A stretch of DNA of 13,541 bases, from the IMG/VR virus record IMGVR_UViG_3300029498_000044; one strand, 5' to 3'. Below, one piece after another: positions 121 to 12,396 of this stretch. A program made the position numbers and the translations under genes. This stretch comes from a virus (lineage: Duplodnaviria > Heunggongvirae > Uroviricota > Caudoviricetes). The notes below the pieces were generated by a model, which was given only the letters and a program-made list of their open reading frames with translations, had not been told where the DNA came from and searched no databases. The stretch's first letter is position 1. The number at the start of each line of letters is the position of its first letter.

Positions 121-645
121 ATGAAGTTATGGCCTGTGTTGACTGGCATTGCACTCTCTTTCACTCTTATAGCATGTAAGGCCCCGACACCACCTAAAGG
201 TGTGCAGCCGATTACAAATTTTGACGCCAACCGCTACCTCGGAAAATGGTATGAAATAGCTCGCCTCGAGAACTGGTTCGAACGTGGTCTGGAACAGGTC
301 AGCGCTACTTATGAAAAACGGAACGACGGAGGGATTCGCGTACTTAACCGTGGATACGATCCAACGAAAAACAAATGGAGCGAGAGCGAAGGTAAAGCAT
401 ACTTTACTGGAGATACTAAAACTGCAGCGTTGAAAGTTTCGTTTTTTGGCCCCTTCTATGGTGGCTATAATGTAATCAAACTGGATGATGAGTATAAGTA
501 TGCTCTTGTCAGTGGTCCGAACAGAGAATACCTATGGATTCTGGCAAGGACCCAAACTATTCCAGATAATGTAAAAGCAGACTATGTGCGTACCGCTCAA
601 AAGTTGGGATTCAATGTCAATGAACTATTATGGGTTAAACAATAA
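121..645 (+). CDS. blc: Bacterial lipocalin (Blc-like) outer-membrane lipoprotein
   Basis: 174 aa. Signal peptide ending in lipobox LIAC. Lipocalin motifs (NFDANRYLGKWYEIAR, KVSFFGPFYGGYNVI, YLWILAR) align with E. coli Blc from memory, clearly divergent. AGGA about 8 nt upstream of ATG. Confidence 0.85.
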   Translation: MKLWPVLTGIALSFTLIACKAPTPPKGVQPITNFDANRYLGKWYEIARLENWFERGLEQVSATYEKRNDGGIRVLNRGYDPTKNKWSESEGKAYFTGDTKTAALKVSFFGPFYGGYNVIKLDDEYKYALVSGPNREYLWILARTQTIPDNVKADYVRTAQKLGFNVNELLWVKQ

Positions 646-800: not shown

Positions 801-1178
801 TTATTTCGAACAATCAGCATCCATCTCCAATCGGAGATCCAACACCATCAGCATGCCCTCCACTACGCCCTCAGCTTTCTGGAGCATCCTGCCAACCCAA
901 CAATCAGATCGCCCATGCTTACGTGCAAGCGCCATAAAAGTCATGCCGCCGACATAATAGTCCACCAATAAATCATGTAAATCGCTGTTGTTTTTTTTCA
1001 GGCGAGCCATACATTCACAAATGATCATCGCGTCATCGTCACAGCATTGCGGACGAGATCTTACTTTTGAAGGAATTAATCCCTTAAAACCGGCGGCAAT
1101 GGACGACCAGGTCACATCTTCATGATTATTAGCCGCCCATGCCCCCCAACGCTCAAGAACCATCTGAATATCACGCAT
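801..1178 (-). CDS. quuD: Late-gene antitermination protein Q (QuuD-type)
   Basis: Translation [24 protein letters not shown]...[10 protein letters not shown]...LRLEMD matches my recollection of DLP12 QuuD. Start moved from the track's TTG (1193) to ATG at 1178 with GGAG 7 nt upstream. Confidence 0.85.
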
Positions 1179-1195
1179 CAACTTACTCCACAAAA

Positions 1196-2884: not shown

Positions 2885-2905
2885 AAAAAACCCGCCGAAG
2901 CGGGT
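2885..2905 (-). terminator. Rho-independent terminator ending the two-gene cassette
   Basis: Minus strand: stem ACCCGC/GCGGGT with TTCG loop, then a T-run. Lies immediately after the stop at 2910. Shares an identical 20-nt core with 4721-4740. Confidence 0.65.
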
Positions 2906-2909
2906 ATAC

Positions 2910-4016
2910 TCAAACAATCTGGAAAATATTTCTTGGATTTGTAATAGGTCTGTTGATGGAGAACAACTCACGAATTAAATCTTGGCTCAAGCCAGTTTTC
3001 ATAAGAATTCTTAGCCAGGTTGCATCATCCAGCATTTCAATCGCCTCGGCCAGCATGCCGGGTTCTTCAGGGCGCAAAAGTTCATCACCAGGTTCAACTC
3101 TCGTATACCCTCTGGAATTAAGATGCATATAGCCAGTTCTTGCCTGTTCCTGGGTCAATAAGCCTAATGCGCTGGCTCGATAAATACACATTTTAAGGCT
3201 GATTTTCCATCTAAGTTTAAATTCAACCAGAGCATTCCAGTCGAATTGCTTACCTCGTATTCGTGGAAATTCTTTAATGAAAGATAACCTGGGAACTAAT
3301 AAGGCGCTCGAAAAGTGATCGGCTTGTGATTCCGTAAGTTTATCACCTGTCGTTATGCCCTCATGCATTACTAAATGCCCTAATTCATGACCTAAATCAG
3401 AGCGAAATCTACATATGCTTTTTTTAACATTGTTCCTGATGATAACAGGCCTGTTATTGTGAACAGTAAAAGCATCAACACGATCATCGACTCCCGTAAC
3501 ATGCGCAACGATTACCCCTAAACTCTCCGCCAATTTAACCATTGATGATATAGGGCCAAGACCTAAATTCCAGGCACGGCGACAATCTTCTGCCACTCGC
3601 TCAATATCATTCGGAGTAAGTAATTCAGCCCCTGGGTGCTCCGGTATGTTAACGTCAGGAAATTCGATTTCACCTTCAACAGCAGAAATTATAATATTAA
3701 GAATCTCAGCCCTGGCCAATACACTATTAGTCAGCGTTTGAGTCCTGGACTTCTTACTCCGAAAATGGCAGACATCACTTTCCAGAGCGTATTTTCGTTC
3801 AGTAAAAAGAAAACTGGACTTAATCATAAGCGCTGAAGATATTAACTCAAGACATTGCTCCGATGGCCTGCACCCCTTCTCCAGTTTGCTAACGAATTGC
3901 TTTGTCTTGCCAATTTTTTCGGCTAACTCTTCACAAGAAAGCCCAACAGCCATTCTCGCTAGTTTGAGCTTATCACCCCGATACTCAGTGAAGTTATTCA
4001 CCTGATGTTCCATCAC
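2910..4016 (-). CDS. HTH_XRE DNA-binding domain fused to ImmA/IrrE-family (COG2856) Zn-metallopeptidase
   Basis: N-terminal XRE helix-turn-helix (about residues 12-68, LARMAVGLSCEELAEKIGKTKQFVSKLEKG). HEXXH motif H210-E-L-G-H214 at nt 3375-3389. First codon is GTG at 4016 or ATG at 4013. Overlaps the upstream gene by about 20 nt. Confidence 0.85.
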   Translation of the reverse strand: MMEHQVNNFTEYRGDKLKLARMAVGLSCEELAEKIGKTKQFVSKLEKGCRPSEQCLELISSALMIKSSFLFTERKYALESDVCHFRSKKSRTQTLTNSVLARAEILNIIISAVEGEIEFPDVNIPEHPGAELLTPNDIERVAEDCRRAWNLGLGPISSMVKLAESLGVIVAHVTGVDDRVDAFTVHNNRPVIIRNNVKKSICRFRSDLGHELGHLVMHEGITTGDKLTESQADHFSSALLVPRLSFIKEFPRIRGKQFDWNALVEFKLRWKISLKMCIYRASALGLLTQEQARTGYMHLNSRGYTRVEPGDELLRPEEPGMLAEAIEMLDDATWLRILMKTGLSQDLIRELFSINRPITNPRNIFQIV

Positions 4017-4644
4017 TGCTCACATCCAAATCTTTATCCTTCGTACGCCGACGAAGAGGCACCTTATTAATCTCCGCTTCGTCAGGGAGTGTGTTATAAT
4101 CAAGAGGCATAAGCGGCATCGATGCTGTAGATTGATGAGAAACTATACTAATCTGAGCACCATAAGTATTAAATCCAACAAGAGCTACCTCCCAACGAGG
4201 CAGTGTGGACTCTAATTCACCATCGCCCTCTTCGGATAAAAAAGGCTCAGCTATGACTCGCCATGTAATATCTTGCTCAGCCTCAACATCACCAAACAAT
4301 GAGAGCTGCTCATACTCTACTTTATTTCGACGCAGACGATGTTTCTTTTTGGGGTTATTAATGCAATCTTTGGTAAATTGTAGCGGAACTTTATTTAAAG
4401 CAACTACATAGTCCAACCCCTTGGAAATCATCTCAAGGCCAGGAATTGCATCTTCATTTTGAATAAGATGATTTCTGACCCAATCATAAGCCCTTACACC
4501 TTCAGACCAGTTGCTGTCTAATGCGTGCTTATGATAGTACAGCTGCTCAAGTACGTTAGCGATCTCCGCCAACAAGTGGCGAACATAGTTTTCAGCAAGA
4601 TAAGGTTGAAATTCCCAACAAGGAGCTAACTGATTTTCATTCAT
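3994..4644 (-). CDS. Hypothetical 216-aa protein, operon partner of the HTH-peptidase; candidate effector or toxin
   Basis: Long ORF with no motif I recognise. Contains a basic patch KKKHRLRRNK. Its 3' end overlaps the downstream peptidase gene. Weak SD. Confidence 0.7.
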   Translation of the reverse strand: MNENQLAPCWEFQPYLAENYVRHLLAEIANVLEQLYYHKHALDSNWSEGVRAYDWVRNHLIQNEDAIPGLEMISKGLDYVVALNKVPLQFTKDCINNPKKKHRLRRNKVEYEQLSLFGDVEAEQDITWRVIAEPFLSEEGDGELESTLPRWEVALVGFNTYGAQISIVSHQSTASMPLMPLDYNTLPDEAEINKVPLRRRTKDKDLDVSSDGTSGE

Positions 4645-4679
4645 TTCAAGTTTCGCTTTTTTTAGAATTCGTAAACCAC

Positions 4680-4708
4680 ATATTTTCGCATTTTTCTATT
4701 TTTGTCAA
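4680..4708 (-). promoter_or_regulatory. Candidate cassette-specific promoter
   Basis: Perfect minus-strand -35 TTGACA (4703-4708). The -10 is weak (AAATAT or AAAATA at 16-18 nt spacing). Sits between the upstream terminator and the cassette start. Confidence 0.3.
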
Positions 4709-4720
4709 CCAGACTAATGC

Positions 4721-4740
4721 AAAAACCCGCCGAAGCGGGT
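4721..4740 (-). terminator. Rho-independent terminator at the 3' end of the hok transcript
   Basis: Same ACCCGC-TTCG-GCGGGT hairpin plus T-run as 2885-2905, about 70 nt past the hok stop. Confidence 0.6.
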
Positions 4741-4809
4741 TAAGTGCGGGTGCGTTGAGGATGCCTGGCACATCAGAGGTGGCGGGAGATTACTCCCCCG
4801 CCGGGTCTC

Positions 4810-4965
4810 TTACTCCTCAGGTTCGTAAGCTGTGAAGACAGCGACCTCCGTCTGGCCGGTTCGGATTCGTACCTCGCAGAGGTCTTTCCTCGTTACCAGT
4901 GCCGTCACAATGACGGTTAAACAGATGACGATCAGGGCGATTAGCATCGCCTTTTGCTGCTTCAT
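4810..4965 (-). CDS. hokD: Hok-family type I toxin (small membrane peptide, 51 aa)
   Basis: MKQQKAMLIALIVICLTVIVTALVTRKDLCEVRIRTGQTEVAVFTAYEPEE is a canonical Hok/Gef sequence and matches my memory of HokD/RelF. Track ORF 4810..5022 carries a 19-codon upstream extension at the mok-like position. Confidence 0.85.
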   Translation of the reverse strand: MKQQKAMLIALIVICLTVIVTALVTRKDLCEVRIRTGQTEVAVFTAYEPEE

Positions 4966-5169
4966 AGCCTGCTTCTCCTTGCCTTTCGGCACGTAAGAGG
5001 CTAACCTACGTGTGTAGAGCATAGATATGGCCTCAGATTAATGTTAAGCGTCTTGCCGGACGCGTAATGTTAACTGGGGCTTTTCTCTATCTGCCTTTTG
5101 GTGTTCATGCCTGAGACAGATAGCCTCAAGCACCCGCTGCAATTCTACTTAACTCTCCTTTTCCCGCAA
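4966..5169 (-). promoter_or_regulatory. hok promoter and long 5' leader with mok-like start and Sok target
   Basis: Minus-strand TTGCGG (5164-5169), 16-nt spacer, TAGAAT (5142-5147). Leader contains GCTTGAGGCTATCTG...CAGATAG complementary boxes. In-frame upstream ATG at 5022. Confidence 0.5.
5014..5090 (+). ncRNA. Candidate Sok-like antisense RNA (approximate coordinates)
   Basis: Plus-strand TTGCCT (4979-4984), 17-nt spacer, TAACCT (5002-5007) would start a transcript antisense to the mok start and SD. The 3' end is not resolved. Confidence 0.3.
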
Positions 5170-5176
5170 ACCGTTT

Positions 5177-5260
5177 TTATCCCCAGCGGCAAATCGAATA
5201 CACCACCAGCGCCACCGCCATCGCAATTCCTACCGTTGTTAATGCTTCAGGCCAGGTCAT
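5177..5260 (-). CDS. Candidate 27-aa hydrophobic peptide ([27 protein letters not shown])
   Basis: ATG overlaps the TGA of the upstream gene (ATGA). GGAGGA lies 9-10 nt upstream. Single predicted transmembrane helix. Not in the ORF track because it is under 60 aa. Confidence 0.3.
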
Positions 5261-5601
5261 CGTAAAATATCCTCCACGCTTATCAGTCCGTTCCGCTCCA
5301 GATAACTCATCGCCTTATCCGGTAATTTGCAGTCTGGCTTCGCTTTCCTCAGTTGCCAGGTTAACTGCTTTACCAGCATGGTTAACTCATCGACCAGACG
5401 CTGATATCCCACTGGTTTGTATTCATGCAATTTACCGGCTGGCTCTGCTGCCAGCGATACCAGTGCGATTTCCAGAACAGCAATATCCATCTTATATGTG
5501 CGGATGATGTCATGGTCGATTGTGCCCGGTATGCACAGTCTCTGTGCTTCAATAGTCTCCTCTGCGTGAGCTATTAACTGCTCTCTGGTAAAAGTCGTCA
5601 T
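5257..5601 (-). CDS. Hypothetical prophage protein (114 aa), paralogous to the next gene upstream
   Basis: ATGA-coupled to the 55-aa ORF. N-terminus MTTFTREQ and segment [11 protein letters not shown] resemble MTTITKER and [11 protein letters not shown] of the neighbour. Confidence 0.6.
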
Positions 5602-5765
5602 GCCGTAGCCCCTTCTTGATATTTTTCAAACCAGAACACAACCGGCTCTGCTTCCAGCGATGCCAGCGCAATCCGTGCCAGTTCCATTTGTTCACCACGG
5701 GTAAGCCCGTTTTCAAGCGGGTTTTTAATGAACAATTCAATACGTTCTTTGGTAATAGTGGTCAT
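5598..5765 (-). CDS. Hypothetical small protein (55 aa), paralog of the 114-aa neighbour
   Basis: Unlisted ORF. AAGGAG 7 nt before ATG at 5765. Stop overlaps the downstream start (ATGA). Confidence 0.6.
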
Positions 5766-5775
5766 GTGTTACTCC

Positions 5776-6039
5776 TTAACCCGCAGTGCTTTCAACTGAT
5801 GAGGGGAACAAAATCTTTTCATCAAACCCTGCATTCATATCATGGACAGCAACACACCAATCCATTGACGAACGATTATCAAGAGCCTCCATGATTTCAT
5901 CCATGCGGCGCAGGTCATACAGGTAAATGCTTTTATCGCCAATGGTGTAAAAACCAATTTTTTTCGGTGATGGACAGCGATCAAGAACGTCCTGTAATTC
6001 GTTCAACCATGCCTGTTCTTTTTTTGTCAAAGTTGCCAT
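5776..6039 (-). CDS. Hypothetical prophage protein (87 aa)
   Basis: Start taken at internal ATG 6039 with AAGGAAA SD, just after the stop of the upstream gene. Track ORF extends to 6129. Confidence 0.55.
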   Translation of the reverse strand: MATLTKKEQAWLNELQDVLDRCPSPKKIGFYTIGDKSIYLYDLRRMDEIMEALDNRSSMDWCVAVHDMNAGFDEKILFPSSVESTAG

Positions 6040-6040
6040 A

Positions 6041-6259
6041 TCAGTTTTCCTTATACGGATTAATTTTATTGTGCAGTGTGTTGAACGGAGCCCATACCAC
6101 GTCGTTATACAATTCAATAACTGGCTCAATTATTTTTCCGATTCCCCATACCAGAATTAACGGGGATATCGGTATCATCAACACGATAAACAGAATGAGA
6201 AACAAAAATTCTGTCGCTCTACTTTTTCGCGGATATTCTTTTCTGAATAATGTAGGCAC
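6041..6259 (-). CDS. Small membrane protein (72 aa, one predicted TM helix)
   Basis: Hydrophobic stretch FLFLILFIVLMIPISPLILVWGIG. GTG start with GGAGAG SD, overlapping the upstream stop. Confidence 0.55.
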   Translation of the reverse strand: MPTLFRKEYPRKSRATEFLFLILFIVLMIPISPLILVWGIGKIIEPVIELYNDVVWAPFNTLHNKINPYKEN

Positions 6260-6260
6260 A

Positions 6261-6476
6261 TCACTCTCCTTTGTTGCTCCTCAAAATTTTATGCCCTGGC
6301 GCAAAAGCACGCGTTTTGTCGGCACTTATTCGCCACCCATCTTTACGTGCCTCTTTTGCACAGCCAGCCCATGACGTACCGATATACTCACCAAAATCTG
6401 GCGACTGATATTTGCCATCCGTACACTGGCGGCAATCACAATAGAGATGCATGGTATAACTTGCGGCAATACCCAT
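6261..6476 (-). CDS. Small Cys-rich protein (71 aa)
   Basis: C-x-C-x2-C cluster (YCDCRQC) plus a further Cys. ATG immediately follows the upstream TGA. Confidence 0.5.
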   Translation of the reverse strand: MGIAASYTMHLYCDCRQCTDGKYQSPDFGEYIGTSWAGCAKEARKDGWRISADKTRAFAPGHKILRSNKGE

Positions 6477-6836
6477 TCAGCCTCCTTTGATGCCCGTGTT
6501 TACAACCAGGCAGGCCTCCTTGAGTACCCAGTCAATAGCGTCTTTCCATGCTCCGGTTTCAACTGGCGGATCCTCACGCCGCACCTGTTCATAAAAGCGC
6601 ACAGCTTTAACCAGTCCTTCTGATGTCACCGAAGCTGGCGGGGCCGTGAATAACGCCTGAATTTCATAGTTTGGTCTGTCGTTACAATCCTCTTTTGTCG
6701 GGACATATTTCCAGTCACCAACCCACTGCTTCCCCTGAAAGTCTGTAACGCCTTTTTTCACGTAGCGATATCGCCATGCCACTGGTTTTGCCTGCCCTAC
6801 CTTTTCATGCCCTTCCTGATAATTAATCTCGCTCAT
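6477..6836 (-). CDS. Hypothetical prophage protein (119 aa)
   Basis: ORF with ATGA overlap to the upstream 58-aa ORF. Confidence 0.6.
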   Translation of the reverse strand: MSEINYQEGHEKVGQAKPVAWRYRYVKKGVTDFQGKQWVGDWKYVPTKEDCNDRPNYEIQALFTAPPASVTSEGLVKAVRFYEQVRREDPPVETGAWKDAIDWVLKEACLVVNTGIKGG

Positions 6837-11142: not shown

Positions 11143-11568
11143 TCAATGCACAGCCACAATATTTCCTGCAGGGCCACCACGATTCATCTGGTTGAAACCA
11201 GCGATCGCCACTGCGACAAAATCATCAGCGTCTCTCACCAGTCGTTCCCGCGTCTCCACCAGCTCCCGAAAATAAGCTGAACTGTGGCTGCGCATTCGGG
11301 CCACCAGCAGAGGCGGCATTGCTTTTTCGATCGCTGGTAACAACGCCTGAATTTTTTTAACCGCATCAGGAGTGTCTTTCTCCACCCAGCGGAAAATTTT
11401 CTGGGTATTGCGAGCCAGGGCTTCCGGATGGCTGTCGTCATATAATTCCGGGAACGTCATACCAAGCTCAAAATAAGCCCGGGTTATTTCAGCTGCCGGA
11501 ACTTTTTCACCGTCCGGATGCGCCCAGGCATTCATCGCCATGCGGATGTGCTCATGCCTGATTTTCAT
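11143..11568 (-). CDS. ydaT: YdaT-like regulator (cII functional analog of Rac-type prophages)
   Basis: 141 aa, MKIRHEHI...IVAVH. N- and C-terminal signature and length match Rac YdaT from memory. Sits between the cro-like and O-like genes. Confidence 0.75.
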   Translation of the reverse strand: MKIRHEHIRMAMNAWAHPDGEKVPAAEITRAYFELGMTFPELYDDSHPEALARNTQKIFRWVEKDTPDAVKKIQALLPAIEKAMPPLLVARMRSHSSAYFRELVETRERLVRDADDFVAVAIAGFNQMNRGGPAGNIVAVH

Positions 11569-11827
11569 GAATCAACTCCGATGCATTTGGTGTGTTAGCC
11601 TTGAATCCAACAGGTAAGCCGTCGGTTGGATTCGGGTAAATATCAGGCCGGAGTTCATGAGGTGTAACCTCGAAATTCGTTACTTCAGCAACACGTAATG
11701 CTTTTTCAGGGCTGAATCTTTCATAGCCCCCCAGCACTCGACTTACATGCACCTGAGATAAACCCGTTAGCTTCCCAAACTGTAGCTGGGTGATATGTTT
11801 CTCTTTTAAATAGTCTCTTAAGTTCAT
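11552..11827 (-). CDS. Cro/YdaS-like HTH regulator
   Basis: HTH segment ITQLQFGKLTGLSQVHVSRVL, followed by an ELRPDIYP motif. ATG at 11827 with GAAGG SD (track start at 11833 is TTG). Divergent from the repressor. Confidence 0.75.
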   Translation of the reverse strand: MNLRDYLKEKHITQLQFGKLTGLSQVHVSRVLGGYERFSPEKALRVAEVTNFEVTPHELRPDIYPNPTDGLPVGFKANTPNASELIHENQA

Positions 11828-11857
11828 AGCCAACCTTCTACGTTATGCCTCGAGCAA

Positions 11858-11934: not shown

Positions 11935-12396
11935 ATGAAAAAAACACGCGAAGTGATTGCAACTCCAGAAGCGAGCAAGAATTTAAAAGCCGCATGGAAT
12001 GCAAGAAAAAAAGAGCTGAAGCTGACTCAAGAGCTGGCGGCTGAGTTGTTGGGATTCGAATCTCAAGGCACCGTTAGCCAGTATCTGAACGGCAAGATAC
12101 CGGTAAATACCGACGCTGCGCTAAAATTTGCGGCTCTGTTAAAGGTAAAACCAGAGGACATTCGAGAAGACCTTAAAGACTTAATGAATTATGTAAGATC
12201 ATCAGATACTTATGATGATAACTTTTCAGGCAAAGGATGGAGGCTGGTCAATGAAGAACAGGCAGAGTTACTTAACCTCTTCGAGATTCTACCTGCGTCA
12301 GAAAAAGCCAAACTCCTTAACCAGCTACGTGGACTAAACAAGCTCTACGAGGAAGCCTTCGAGAACATGCTGGCACTAAAGAAACGTAACCAGTAG
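11935..12396 (+). CDS. Prophage repressor, DicA/RacR-like (HTH_XRE, no S24 peptidase domain)
   Basis: 153 aa. N-terminal XRE HTH (LTQELAAELLGFESQGTVSQYLNG). C-terminal ELLNLFEILPASEKAKL resembles the DicA C-terminus. No LexA-type Ser/Lys autocleavage domain. Confidence 0.8.
   Translation: MKKTREVIATPEASKNLKAAWNARKKELKLTQELAAELLGFESQGTVSQYLNGKIPVNTDAALKFAALLKVKPEDIREDLKDLMNYVRSSDTYDDNFSGKGWRLVNEEQAELLNLFEILPASEKAKLLNQLRGLNKLYEEAFENMLALKKRNQ

Follow-up and report, generated by a model that had tools for sequence, protein, structure and literature searches.

The 13,541-nt stretch of DNA analysed here (IMG/VR virus record IMGVR_UViG_3300029498_000044, hereafter the window) is a Rac/Qin-like lambdoid prophage whose minus strand encodes RmrA, a protein that joins an XRE-type helix-turn-helix (HTH) domain to an ImmA/IrrE-type zinc peptidase. 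We find that RmrA is very probably the repressor and peptidase antitoxin of a RosmerTA anti-phage cassette, in which the gene directly upstream encodes the predicted toxin, RmrT. A preliminary description of the locus had singled out an intact HEXXH motif in the fusion protein and suggested that the enzyme could either gate a defence response or act as an anti-repressor of the prophage; it did not recognise that the pair is an already named and catalogued system. Our confidence applies to the identity and general role of RmrA and not to the choice of substrate by its peptidase, for which comparison with the CapH repressor and the CapP peptidase points tentatively to a bond within RmrA itself.

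RmrA and its zinc site

The rmrA gene (2910–4013, minus strand) encodes 367 amino acids from an ATG at 4013, the start used for its RefSeq counterpart, WP_000401168.1. The open reading frame also opens at a GTG at 4016 (2910–4016, minus strand), which yields 368 residues and raises the numbering by one; for the zinc site and the linker discussed below, we number from the ATG. The protein consists of an XRE-type HTH DNA-binding domain (about residues 14–73; 3798–3977, minus strand), a Peptidase_M78 domain (residues 177–282; 3171–3488, minus strand) of the ImmA/IrrE type, also labelled ‘IrrE N-terminal-like’, and an all-helical C-terminal region. Pfam places HTH_3 at residues 17–63 and gives Peptidase_M78 a score of 42.6 bits (gathering score, 22), in agreement with the fusion of HTH_XRE and ImmA/IrrE domains reported in the preliminary description. 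Over nearly its whole length (residues 12–351), RmrA matches the PADLOC RmrA model PDLC03943 (E = 6.2e-105), one of 14 RmrA models hit, and it falls in PHROG 2439 (E = 7.6e-123). RefSeq labels the rmrA product a ‘helix-turn-helix domain-containing protein’ and the rmrT product a ‘hypothetical protein’.

The experimentally verified RosmerTA pair is that of Escherichia coli OLC-716 (Millman et al. 2022). Its RmrA is 29% identical to the window protein over 301 amino acids (E = 2e-35), and in this alignment the HELGH motif, the downstream glutamate and the Phe-Arg pair of the linker all line up. The NCBIfam model for spr1629-family repressor/antitoxin proteins also covers most of RmrA (residues 11–355, E = 1.5e-45); because its score of 155.9 bits falls far below the model cut-off of 335, RmrA and Spr1629 of Streptococcus pneumoniae are, by sequence, relatives and not equivalogs.

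An AlphaFold2 model built from an alignment of 34 homologues (mean per-residue confidence, pLDDT, 88; predicted template modelling score 0.86) shows a CapP/IrrE-like fold, with 153 of the 278 residues of CapP aligned and an all-helical structure beyond residue 243. RmrA thus combines a profile score above the curated threshold with the fold of the ImmA/IrrE family. A search of solved structures with the single RmrA sequence recovered HTH domains only, and CapP and PDB 9vzy_A were reached only with a profile. The latter, a 393-aa ‘HTH cro/C1-type domain-containing protein’ found at a profile E of 2e-8, has the same architecture of HTH and M78 domains and may represent the first RmrA-like antitoxin with a solved structure; entry 9VZY is unmentioned in the papers searched and is absent from the fold libraries.

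The HELGH motif, which supplies the M78 domain with its catalytic glutamate and both of its zinc-binding histidines, lies at 3375–3389 (minus strand), where the reverse complement, CATGAATTAGGGCAT, translates as H-E-L-G-H. The motif spans H209–H213, or H210–H214 in the GTG numbering of the preliminary description, which had placed and numbered it correctly. A bare HE..H pattern proves little, because the whole window, translated in six frames, contains it twice, and it is the context that decides. We collected 344 RmrA homologues at E ≤ 1e-5, aligned 34 of them ranging from 84% to 37% identity, and searched the PDB sequences with the resulting profile. In the match to Thauera CapP, the RmrA segment ‘RFDiaHElgHlvlH...TEkqAnrFasalllP’ aligns with ‘RFTQAHELGHYILH...IEAQADLFASYLLMP’, and the matched CapP residues (the deposited chain is offset by two residues) are those that hold the zinc in the crystal structure, H96, H100 and E129, together with the catalytic E97 (Lau et al. 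preprint). Because the column of E228 matches the CapP ligand E129, we assign E228 (E229 in GTG numbering; codon at 3330–3332, minus strand), within a T-E-x-Q-A-[DN]-x-F motif, as the predicted third zinc ligand on the basis of both the CapP alignment and conservation. The profile alignment, proposed earlier as the check on the catalytic register and the third ligand, therefore places HEXXH and the downstream glutamate in the active-site register of the ImmA/IrrE family (Pfam Peptidase_M78, COG2856).

The conservation of these residues is strict. In an alignment of 122 family members, made up of the window protein, the experimentally verified RmrA of OLC-716 and 120 clusters from databases, H209, E210, H213 and E228 are each found in 122 of 122 sequences, even in those only 29% identical, whereas the positions around them vary. 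This argues for a competent peptidase, as had been predicted from the intact codons, and nothing in the sequence points to an inactive enzyme. By these alignments, HELGH is the catalytic zinc centre of the RmrA peptidase, in which the metal would be bound by H209, H213 and E228 and E210 would serve as the general base. The same alignments indicate that an intact HEXXH is the norm throughout the RmrA family and no peculiarity of the window copy.

RmrT and the pairing of the two genes

The rmrT gene (3994–4644, minus strand), already noted as a 216-aa partner in the preliminary description, lies directly upstream of rmrA in the same orientation and overlaps it by 20 nt (23 nt with the GTG start of rmrA). 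Its product matches the PADLOC RmrT model PDLC03929 (E = 4.6e-25) and belongs to PHROG 5786; searches against Pfam and NCBIfam gave no match. An adjacent, co-oriented RmrT gene, together with the RmrA models, HTH_3 and Peptidase_M78, makes up the sequence-level definition of RosmerTA, and the earlier suggestion that the locus gates a defence response fits this toxin–antitoxin defence system.

The AlphaFold2 model of RmrT (pLDDT 81) gives only weak fold matches to restriction-endonuclease-like proteins, and the protein is predicted to be soluble, with a weakly nuclease-like fold. A nuclease function was considered and not assigned: the conserved residues D43, P98, E110, W128, R129 and G157 form no recognisable PD-(D/E)xK triad. 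The family of the window RmrT comprises 37 clusters at 50% identity and is catalogued as an RmrT hidden Markov model. The disordered C-terminal tail of the protein (residues 187–216; 3997–4086, minus strand) carries a semi-conserved P-E-A-E-I-x-x-P-hydrophobic-R-R motif followed by charged residues, a possible degron or site of cleavage.

The two genes travel together. Among 5,426 complete E. coli genomes, 237 (about 4%) carry the cassette, including strains 042, ABU 83972, VR50 and ML35; 224 of the 238 E. coli records with any match are at least 99% identical, and all 238 contain both rmrT and rmrA. Homologues of RmrA at 42–68% identity occur in Xenorhabdus, Serratia, another E. coli lineage, Pseudomonas aeruginosa, Alteromonas and P. 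oryzihabitans, and in each of these six genomes an RmrT of the same family is encoded directly upstream (hmmsearch E = 2e-50 to 3e-72). Among such homologous pairs, RmrT diverges faster than RmrA. The Serratia pair sits between Q and a holin gene, and the Xenorhabdus pair also occupies another position in a prophage. Other pairs lie outside prophages, in P. aeruginosa between insertion sequence elements and in Alteromonas beside a GAPS4 system. In Alteromonas macleodii, the rmrTA pair (4553–6611 of the locus examined) adjoins genes for GAPS4b_N and PDDEXK_GAPS4, an arrangement that is a defence island and not a prophage.

Two natural lesions, from a handful of loci read, bear on which of the two proteins is harmful. 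In FDAARGOS_1249 (NZ_CP069459.1; 2995–4711 of the locus examined), an IS5 element interrupts rmrT at about codon 41, and in CP088590.1 (13090–13740 of the locus examined), rmrT carries the nonsense mutation Q34*; in both genomes rmrA is 100% intact. Because E. coli genomes with a destroyed rmrT and an intact rmrA exist, RmrA alone must be tolerated at native expression. The second record is typed as a 175-kb non-mobilizable plasmid (‘plasmid’ pD17EC0246-6), yet it holds a whole lambdoid prophage integrated beside ompW, and it may be a misassigned chromosomal fragment. Conversely, other groups working on this family have found that RmrT-type proteins are toxic, that rmrA cannot be deleted and that such pairs defend against phages: an rmrA deletion of the canonical RosmerTA could not be transformed, and rmrA is essential in three Pectobacteriaceae, as shown by transposon screens.

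Comparison with characterised pairs places the window cassette within the Rosmer family and shows where it departs from each. Like the OLC-716 system (Millman et al. 2022), it consists of two overlapping, co-oriented genes with the toxin first, and the antitoxins are alike in size (370 residues in OLC-716, 367 here), in their combination of XRE-HTH and zinc peptidase domains and in matching PADLOC RmrA models. In contrast, the two RmrT proteins are unrelated in sequence, and RosmerTA toxins are diverse across the family. RipAB (Spr1630/Spr1629) of S. pneumoniae is likewise a Rosmer-family pair with an XRE and ImmA-like antitoxin; there, the target of the toxin RipA is the DnaN sliding clamp, and control of RipA depends on ClpX. 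The RmrTA pair of Gordonia phage Kita (Ernits et al. 2023) is a phage-borne RosmerTA with an ImmA-type antitoxin and a narrow anti-phage defence. Its toxin, however, has transmembrane segments and depolarises membranes, whereas the window RmrT is predicted to be soluble.

Candidate substrates of the RmrA peptidase

The characterised relatives of the RmrA peptidase all cut an XRE repressor shortly beyond its HTH. In CapH, the bond cut by CapP joins F82 to R83, and the R83A substitution makes CapH resistant to the cut. In RmrA, an invariant H-F-R (H83-F84-R85; 3759–3767, minus strand) lies in the linker about ten residues beyond the HTH and is a candidate scissile site, between F84 and R85, or a pseudo-substrate. 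F84 and R85 are present in all 120 sequences that cover this region, the verified OLC-716 RmrA included. Model confidence is low in the linker (pLDDT 63), and the fold therefore does not account for the conservation of the Phe-Arg pair. When the CapH family was recovered (107-aa proteins), F82 was found in 78 of 81 and R83 in 77 of 81 sequences. CapH ‘..DEAFF/RGY..’ and RmrA ‘..EQCHF/RS..’ share alignment columns, such that the F82–R83 bond (the slash) corresponds to F84–R85; a search of the PDB with the 75-aa linker alone gave no match. To judge from these alignments, RmrA resembles a CapH that retains the candidate scissile site and is joined to a CapP-like peptidase, and the peptidase's most likely substrate would be its own linker at F84–R85, although we hold this assignment at rather less than even confidence. 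Cleavage of the HTH has also been proposed for Rosmer-like antitoxins by Ernits et al. (2023).

The resemblance to CapH/CapP, and to DdrO/IrrE of Deinococcus, extends over the HELGH...E zinc site and over an N terminus that aligns through the HTH to the scissile bond, and by this analogy RmrA plausibly works like a CapH/CapP pair. The differences are also clear. RmrA fuses the HTH to the peptidase and is encoded downstream of a toxin gene, whereas CapH and CapP are separate, upstream genes. CapP has a GAF domain with a groove for single-stranded DNA; GAF is an alpha/beta domain, and the C-terminal third of RmrA is all-helical and lacks it. A subset of CapP proteins has a cysteine-switch loop that covers the active site, and this too is missing in RmrA, in which the gap between H213 and E228 is 14 residues without a cysteine, as against 28 including C113 in CapP. 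RmrA is thus distinct from a CapH/CapP-type pair in its gene arrangement and in having neither a GAF domain nor a cysteine switch. Finally, CapH/CapP regulate multi-gene immune operons, among them cyclic oligonucleotide-based anti-phage signalling systems (CBASS) and other defence operons, whereas RmrA would control or neutralise a single toxin. Because the GAF domain and the cysteine-switch loop are missing, RmrA probably senses its activating signal in a manner unlike the sensing of single-stranded DNA by CapP.

We therefore propose, as a working model that we consider plausible and put clearly short of an even chance, that RmrA is a fused CapH/CapP-type switch that cuts itself between F84 and R85, in cis or across a dimer, and thereby activates the toxin during infection. 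Before infection, the HTH would silence transcription from the cassette promoter and RmrA would hold RmrT in a harmless state, with the peptidase acting as the switch. On an infection cue, a cut at F84–R85 would separate the HTH from the rest of RmrA, with the result that the operon is derepressed and RmrT released; the freed RmrT would then stop the growth of the infected cell or kill it, and ClpXP would clear the RmrA fragments.

Several points weigh against this model. The searchable literature yields no experiment on this particular pair and does not mention WP_000401168 or WP_001004956; it likewise reports neither cleavage by, nor an active-site mutant of, any RmrA, and it contains no test of the window's RmrT subtype. 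Because the window RmrT shows no sequence relationship to its verified OLC-716 counterpart, the toxicity and defence of this subtype are extrapolated from its relatives. The Phe-Arg match might instead have a structural cause, or stem from a common origin after which cleavage was not kept. With neither a GAF domain nor a cysteine-switch loop, RmrA does not simply inherit the single-stranded DNA-sensing logic of CapP. Moreover, proteolysis of the toxin accounts at least as readily for the dependence of Rosmer-type systems on ClpX or ClpP.

The last point leads to the closest alternative, in which RmrA is a proteolytic antitoxin: it would continuously clip RmrT, possibly after unfolding and presentation by ClpX, with ClpXP removing the pieces, and infection would interrupt this process and let RmrT accumulate. 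We regard this as possible but doubtful. Rosmer-type systems make clpX or clpP essential, clpP in E. coli E101 and clpX in S. pneumoniae (RipAB) and three Pectobacteriaceae; overexpression of RipB renders ClpX dispensable, and the authors of that work propose that ClpX presents RipA to RipB. AlphaFold predicts no stable RmrT–RmrA complex for phage Kita, which fits a relation of enzyme and substrate. One conserved RmrA scaffold is partnered with unrelated toxins, the catalytic residues are conserved in 122 of 122 sequences, as would be expected if loss of catalysis were lethal, and the disordered tail of RmrT offers its semi-conserved hydrophobic-R-R. However, the characterised relatives ImmA, IrrE and CapP cut a repressor and not an effector, cleavage of an RmrT has no reported instance, and the tail motif is only moderately conserved, with R199 in 18 of 34 sequences. 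The ClpX dependence could also arise from the clearance of RmrA fragments; fragments of LexA are cleared in a comparable way. Cleavage of RmrA and cleavage of RmrT, both inferences, are not mutually exclusive.

RmrA might instead neutralise RmrT by stoichiometric binding, the mode of most type II antitoxins, with the peptidase fold reduced to a binding scaffold. This seems improbable: the two histidines, the glutamate between them and the distal glutamate are retained in every one of the 122 sequences amid variable neighbours, and a stable complex could not be predicted for the Kita pair. We consider it very improbable that the polarity is reversed, with the HTH-peptidase protein as a toxic effector that cuts host proteins and the upstream protein as its neutraliser. 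The precedent is PD-lambda-2 (Vassallo et al. 2022), an E. coli phage defence system in which the gene for an Xre-HTH and ImmA/IrrE fusion likewise directly follows a small toxin-like gene; the fusion is toxic alone when overexpressed and is rescued by the upstream HigB-like protein. PD-lambda-2, however, is a three-gene system whose first component is HigB-like and whose peptidase fusion is toxic, whereas the window cassette has two genes and an RmrA that is tolerated alone. The genomes with intact rmrA and destroyed rmrT (NZ_CP069459.1 and CP088590.1) and the essentiality of rmrA described above speak against the reversed arrangement, and on the strength of those rmrT-null genomes we rejected RmrA as the toxin.

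Cassette anatomy and prophage context

The rmrTA cassette is a 1.8-kb insert between rem and hokD with its own promoter region and its own terminator. The promoter and a probable operator occupy 4645–4724 (minus strand), where TTGACA (4708–4703) is followed by two tandem, promoter-like GGTT[G/T]AC-N14-GCGAAA units. A simple promoter scan did not flag this promoter because its –10 element is poor, and no obvious Shine–Dalgarno sequence precedes the rmrT ATG. The 80 nt upstream of rmrT are 76% identical between E. coli and Serratia, compared with 62–66% for the coding DNA and 37% for the downstream DNA, a pattern that fits an operator to which the RmrA HTH would bind; a palindrome search upstream of rmrT found only a weak one, centred on GAATTC.

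The cassette is bracketed by two copies of a 21-bp sequence, AAAAACCCGCCGAAGCGGGT, which form near-identical terminator hairpins. The upstream copy (4722–4741) carries the hairpin that follows hokD (4724–4741, minus strand), and the downstream copy (2886–2905) carries the hairpin that follows rmrA (2890–2905, minus strand). In cassette-free phages of the Stx2/PPompW type, rem adjoins hokD and AAAAACCCGCCGAAGCGGGT is present in a single copy (empty site in LC567818.1). By this comparison, the duplicated sequence marks the point of insertion or exchange of a moron, and the rmrTA cassette is a typical moron of a Rac/Qin-like E. coli prophage. Immediately upstream of the cassette, hokD (4810–5022, minus strand) is a type I toxin gene of the hok/gef family. 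In the Qin prophage of K-12, relBE occupies the same rem–hokD neighbourhood. Because hokD and RosmerTA lie here and relBE lies there, the interval looks, by analogy, like a hotspot for toxin–antitoxin and defence genes in Rac/Qin-type prophages.

The wider gene order runs from a RacR/DicA-like repressor through YdaS and YdaT, O/P-like replication genes, DUF1627, DUF977, DUF4406, Ead, hokD and the cassette to rem, DUF968 and Q. YdaS and YdaT bear Pfam ‘toxin’ names. A Blc-like lipocalin is encoded directly beyond the antiterminator gene Q, where late genes would be expected (121–645, plus strand; 801–1193, minus strand). About 1,000 complete E. coli genomes share the Q–lipocalin junction, which is thus common among prophages; the first 75 bases of the window lie outside that match. 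A RacR/YdaS/YdaT-type immunity region occupies 11143–11833 (minus strand) and 11935–12396 (plus strand), and its DicA/RacR-like repressor (11935–12396, 153 amino acids) has an HTH and no LexA-like S24 self-cleavage domain.

This repressor is the substrate required by the remaining alternative, raised in the preliminary description, that RmrA is a prophage anti-repressor that would cleave it, as ImmA cleaves ImmR, and so induce the prophage. ImmA-type peptidases do induce ICEBs1 and phi105 in this way, ImmA being, like RmrA, a mobile-element M78 metallopeptidase that acts on an XRE-type HTH protein, and a repressor without an S24 domain must be inactivated by something else. ImmA, however, is a separate protein encoded beside its cognate repressor, whereas rmrA belongs to a separate promoter–terminator unit some 7 kb away from the immunity region and is always coupled to rmrT; the cassette is neither linked to nor co-inherited with a cognate element repressor. 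RmrA proteins that are 93–100% identical occur beside unrelated repressors in O55:H7 DEC5A, KFu019 (LexA-family) and KL53, the window repressor being shared by one of four loci examined. Some sister prophages of this type lack the cassette, and in Alteromonas and P. aeruginosa homologous rmrTA pairs reside in DNA that is not prophage. As the cassette is found with at least four unrelated immunity regions, and its homologues also at non-prophage sites, we rejected the anti-repressor role on context, and by these comparisons it is the least likely of the readings considered here, with very little probability left to it.

The immediate value of the assignment of RmrA and RmrT to RosmerTA is practical: the locus receives a correct annotation, a full predicted set of zinc ligands and a specific candidate scissile bond. 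Its reach is broader than one prophage, as this cassette is carried by about 4% of complete E. coli genomes and RosmerTA is widespread. If RmrA does cleave itself, the RosmerTA family would gain its first activation mechanism, and self-cleavage would explain why clpX or clpP becomes essential in cells that carry these systems.

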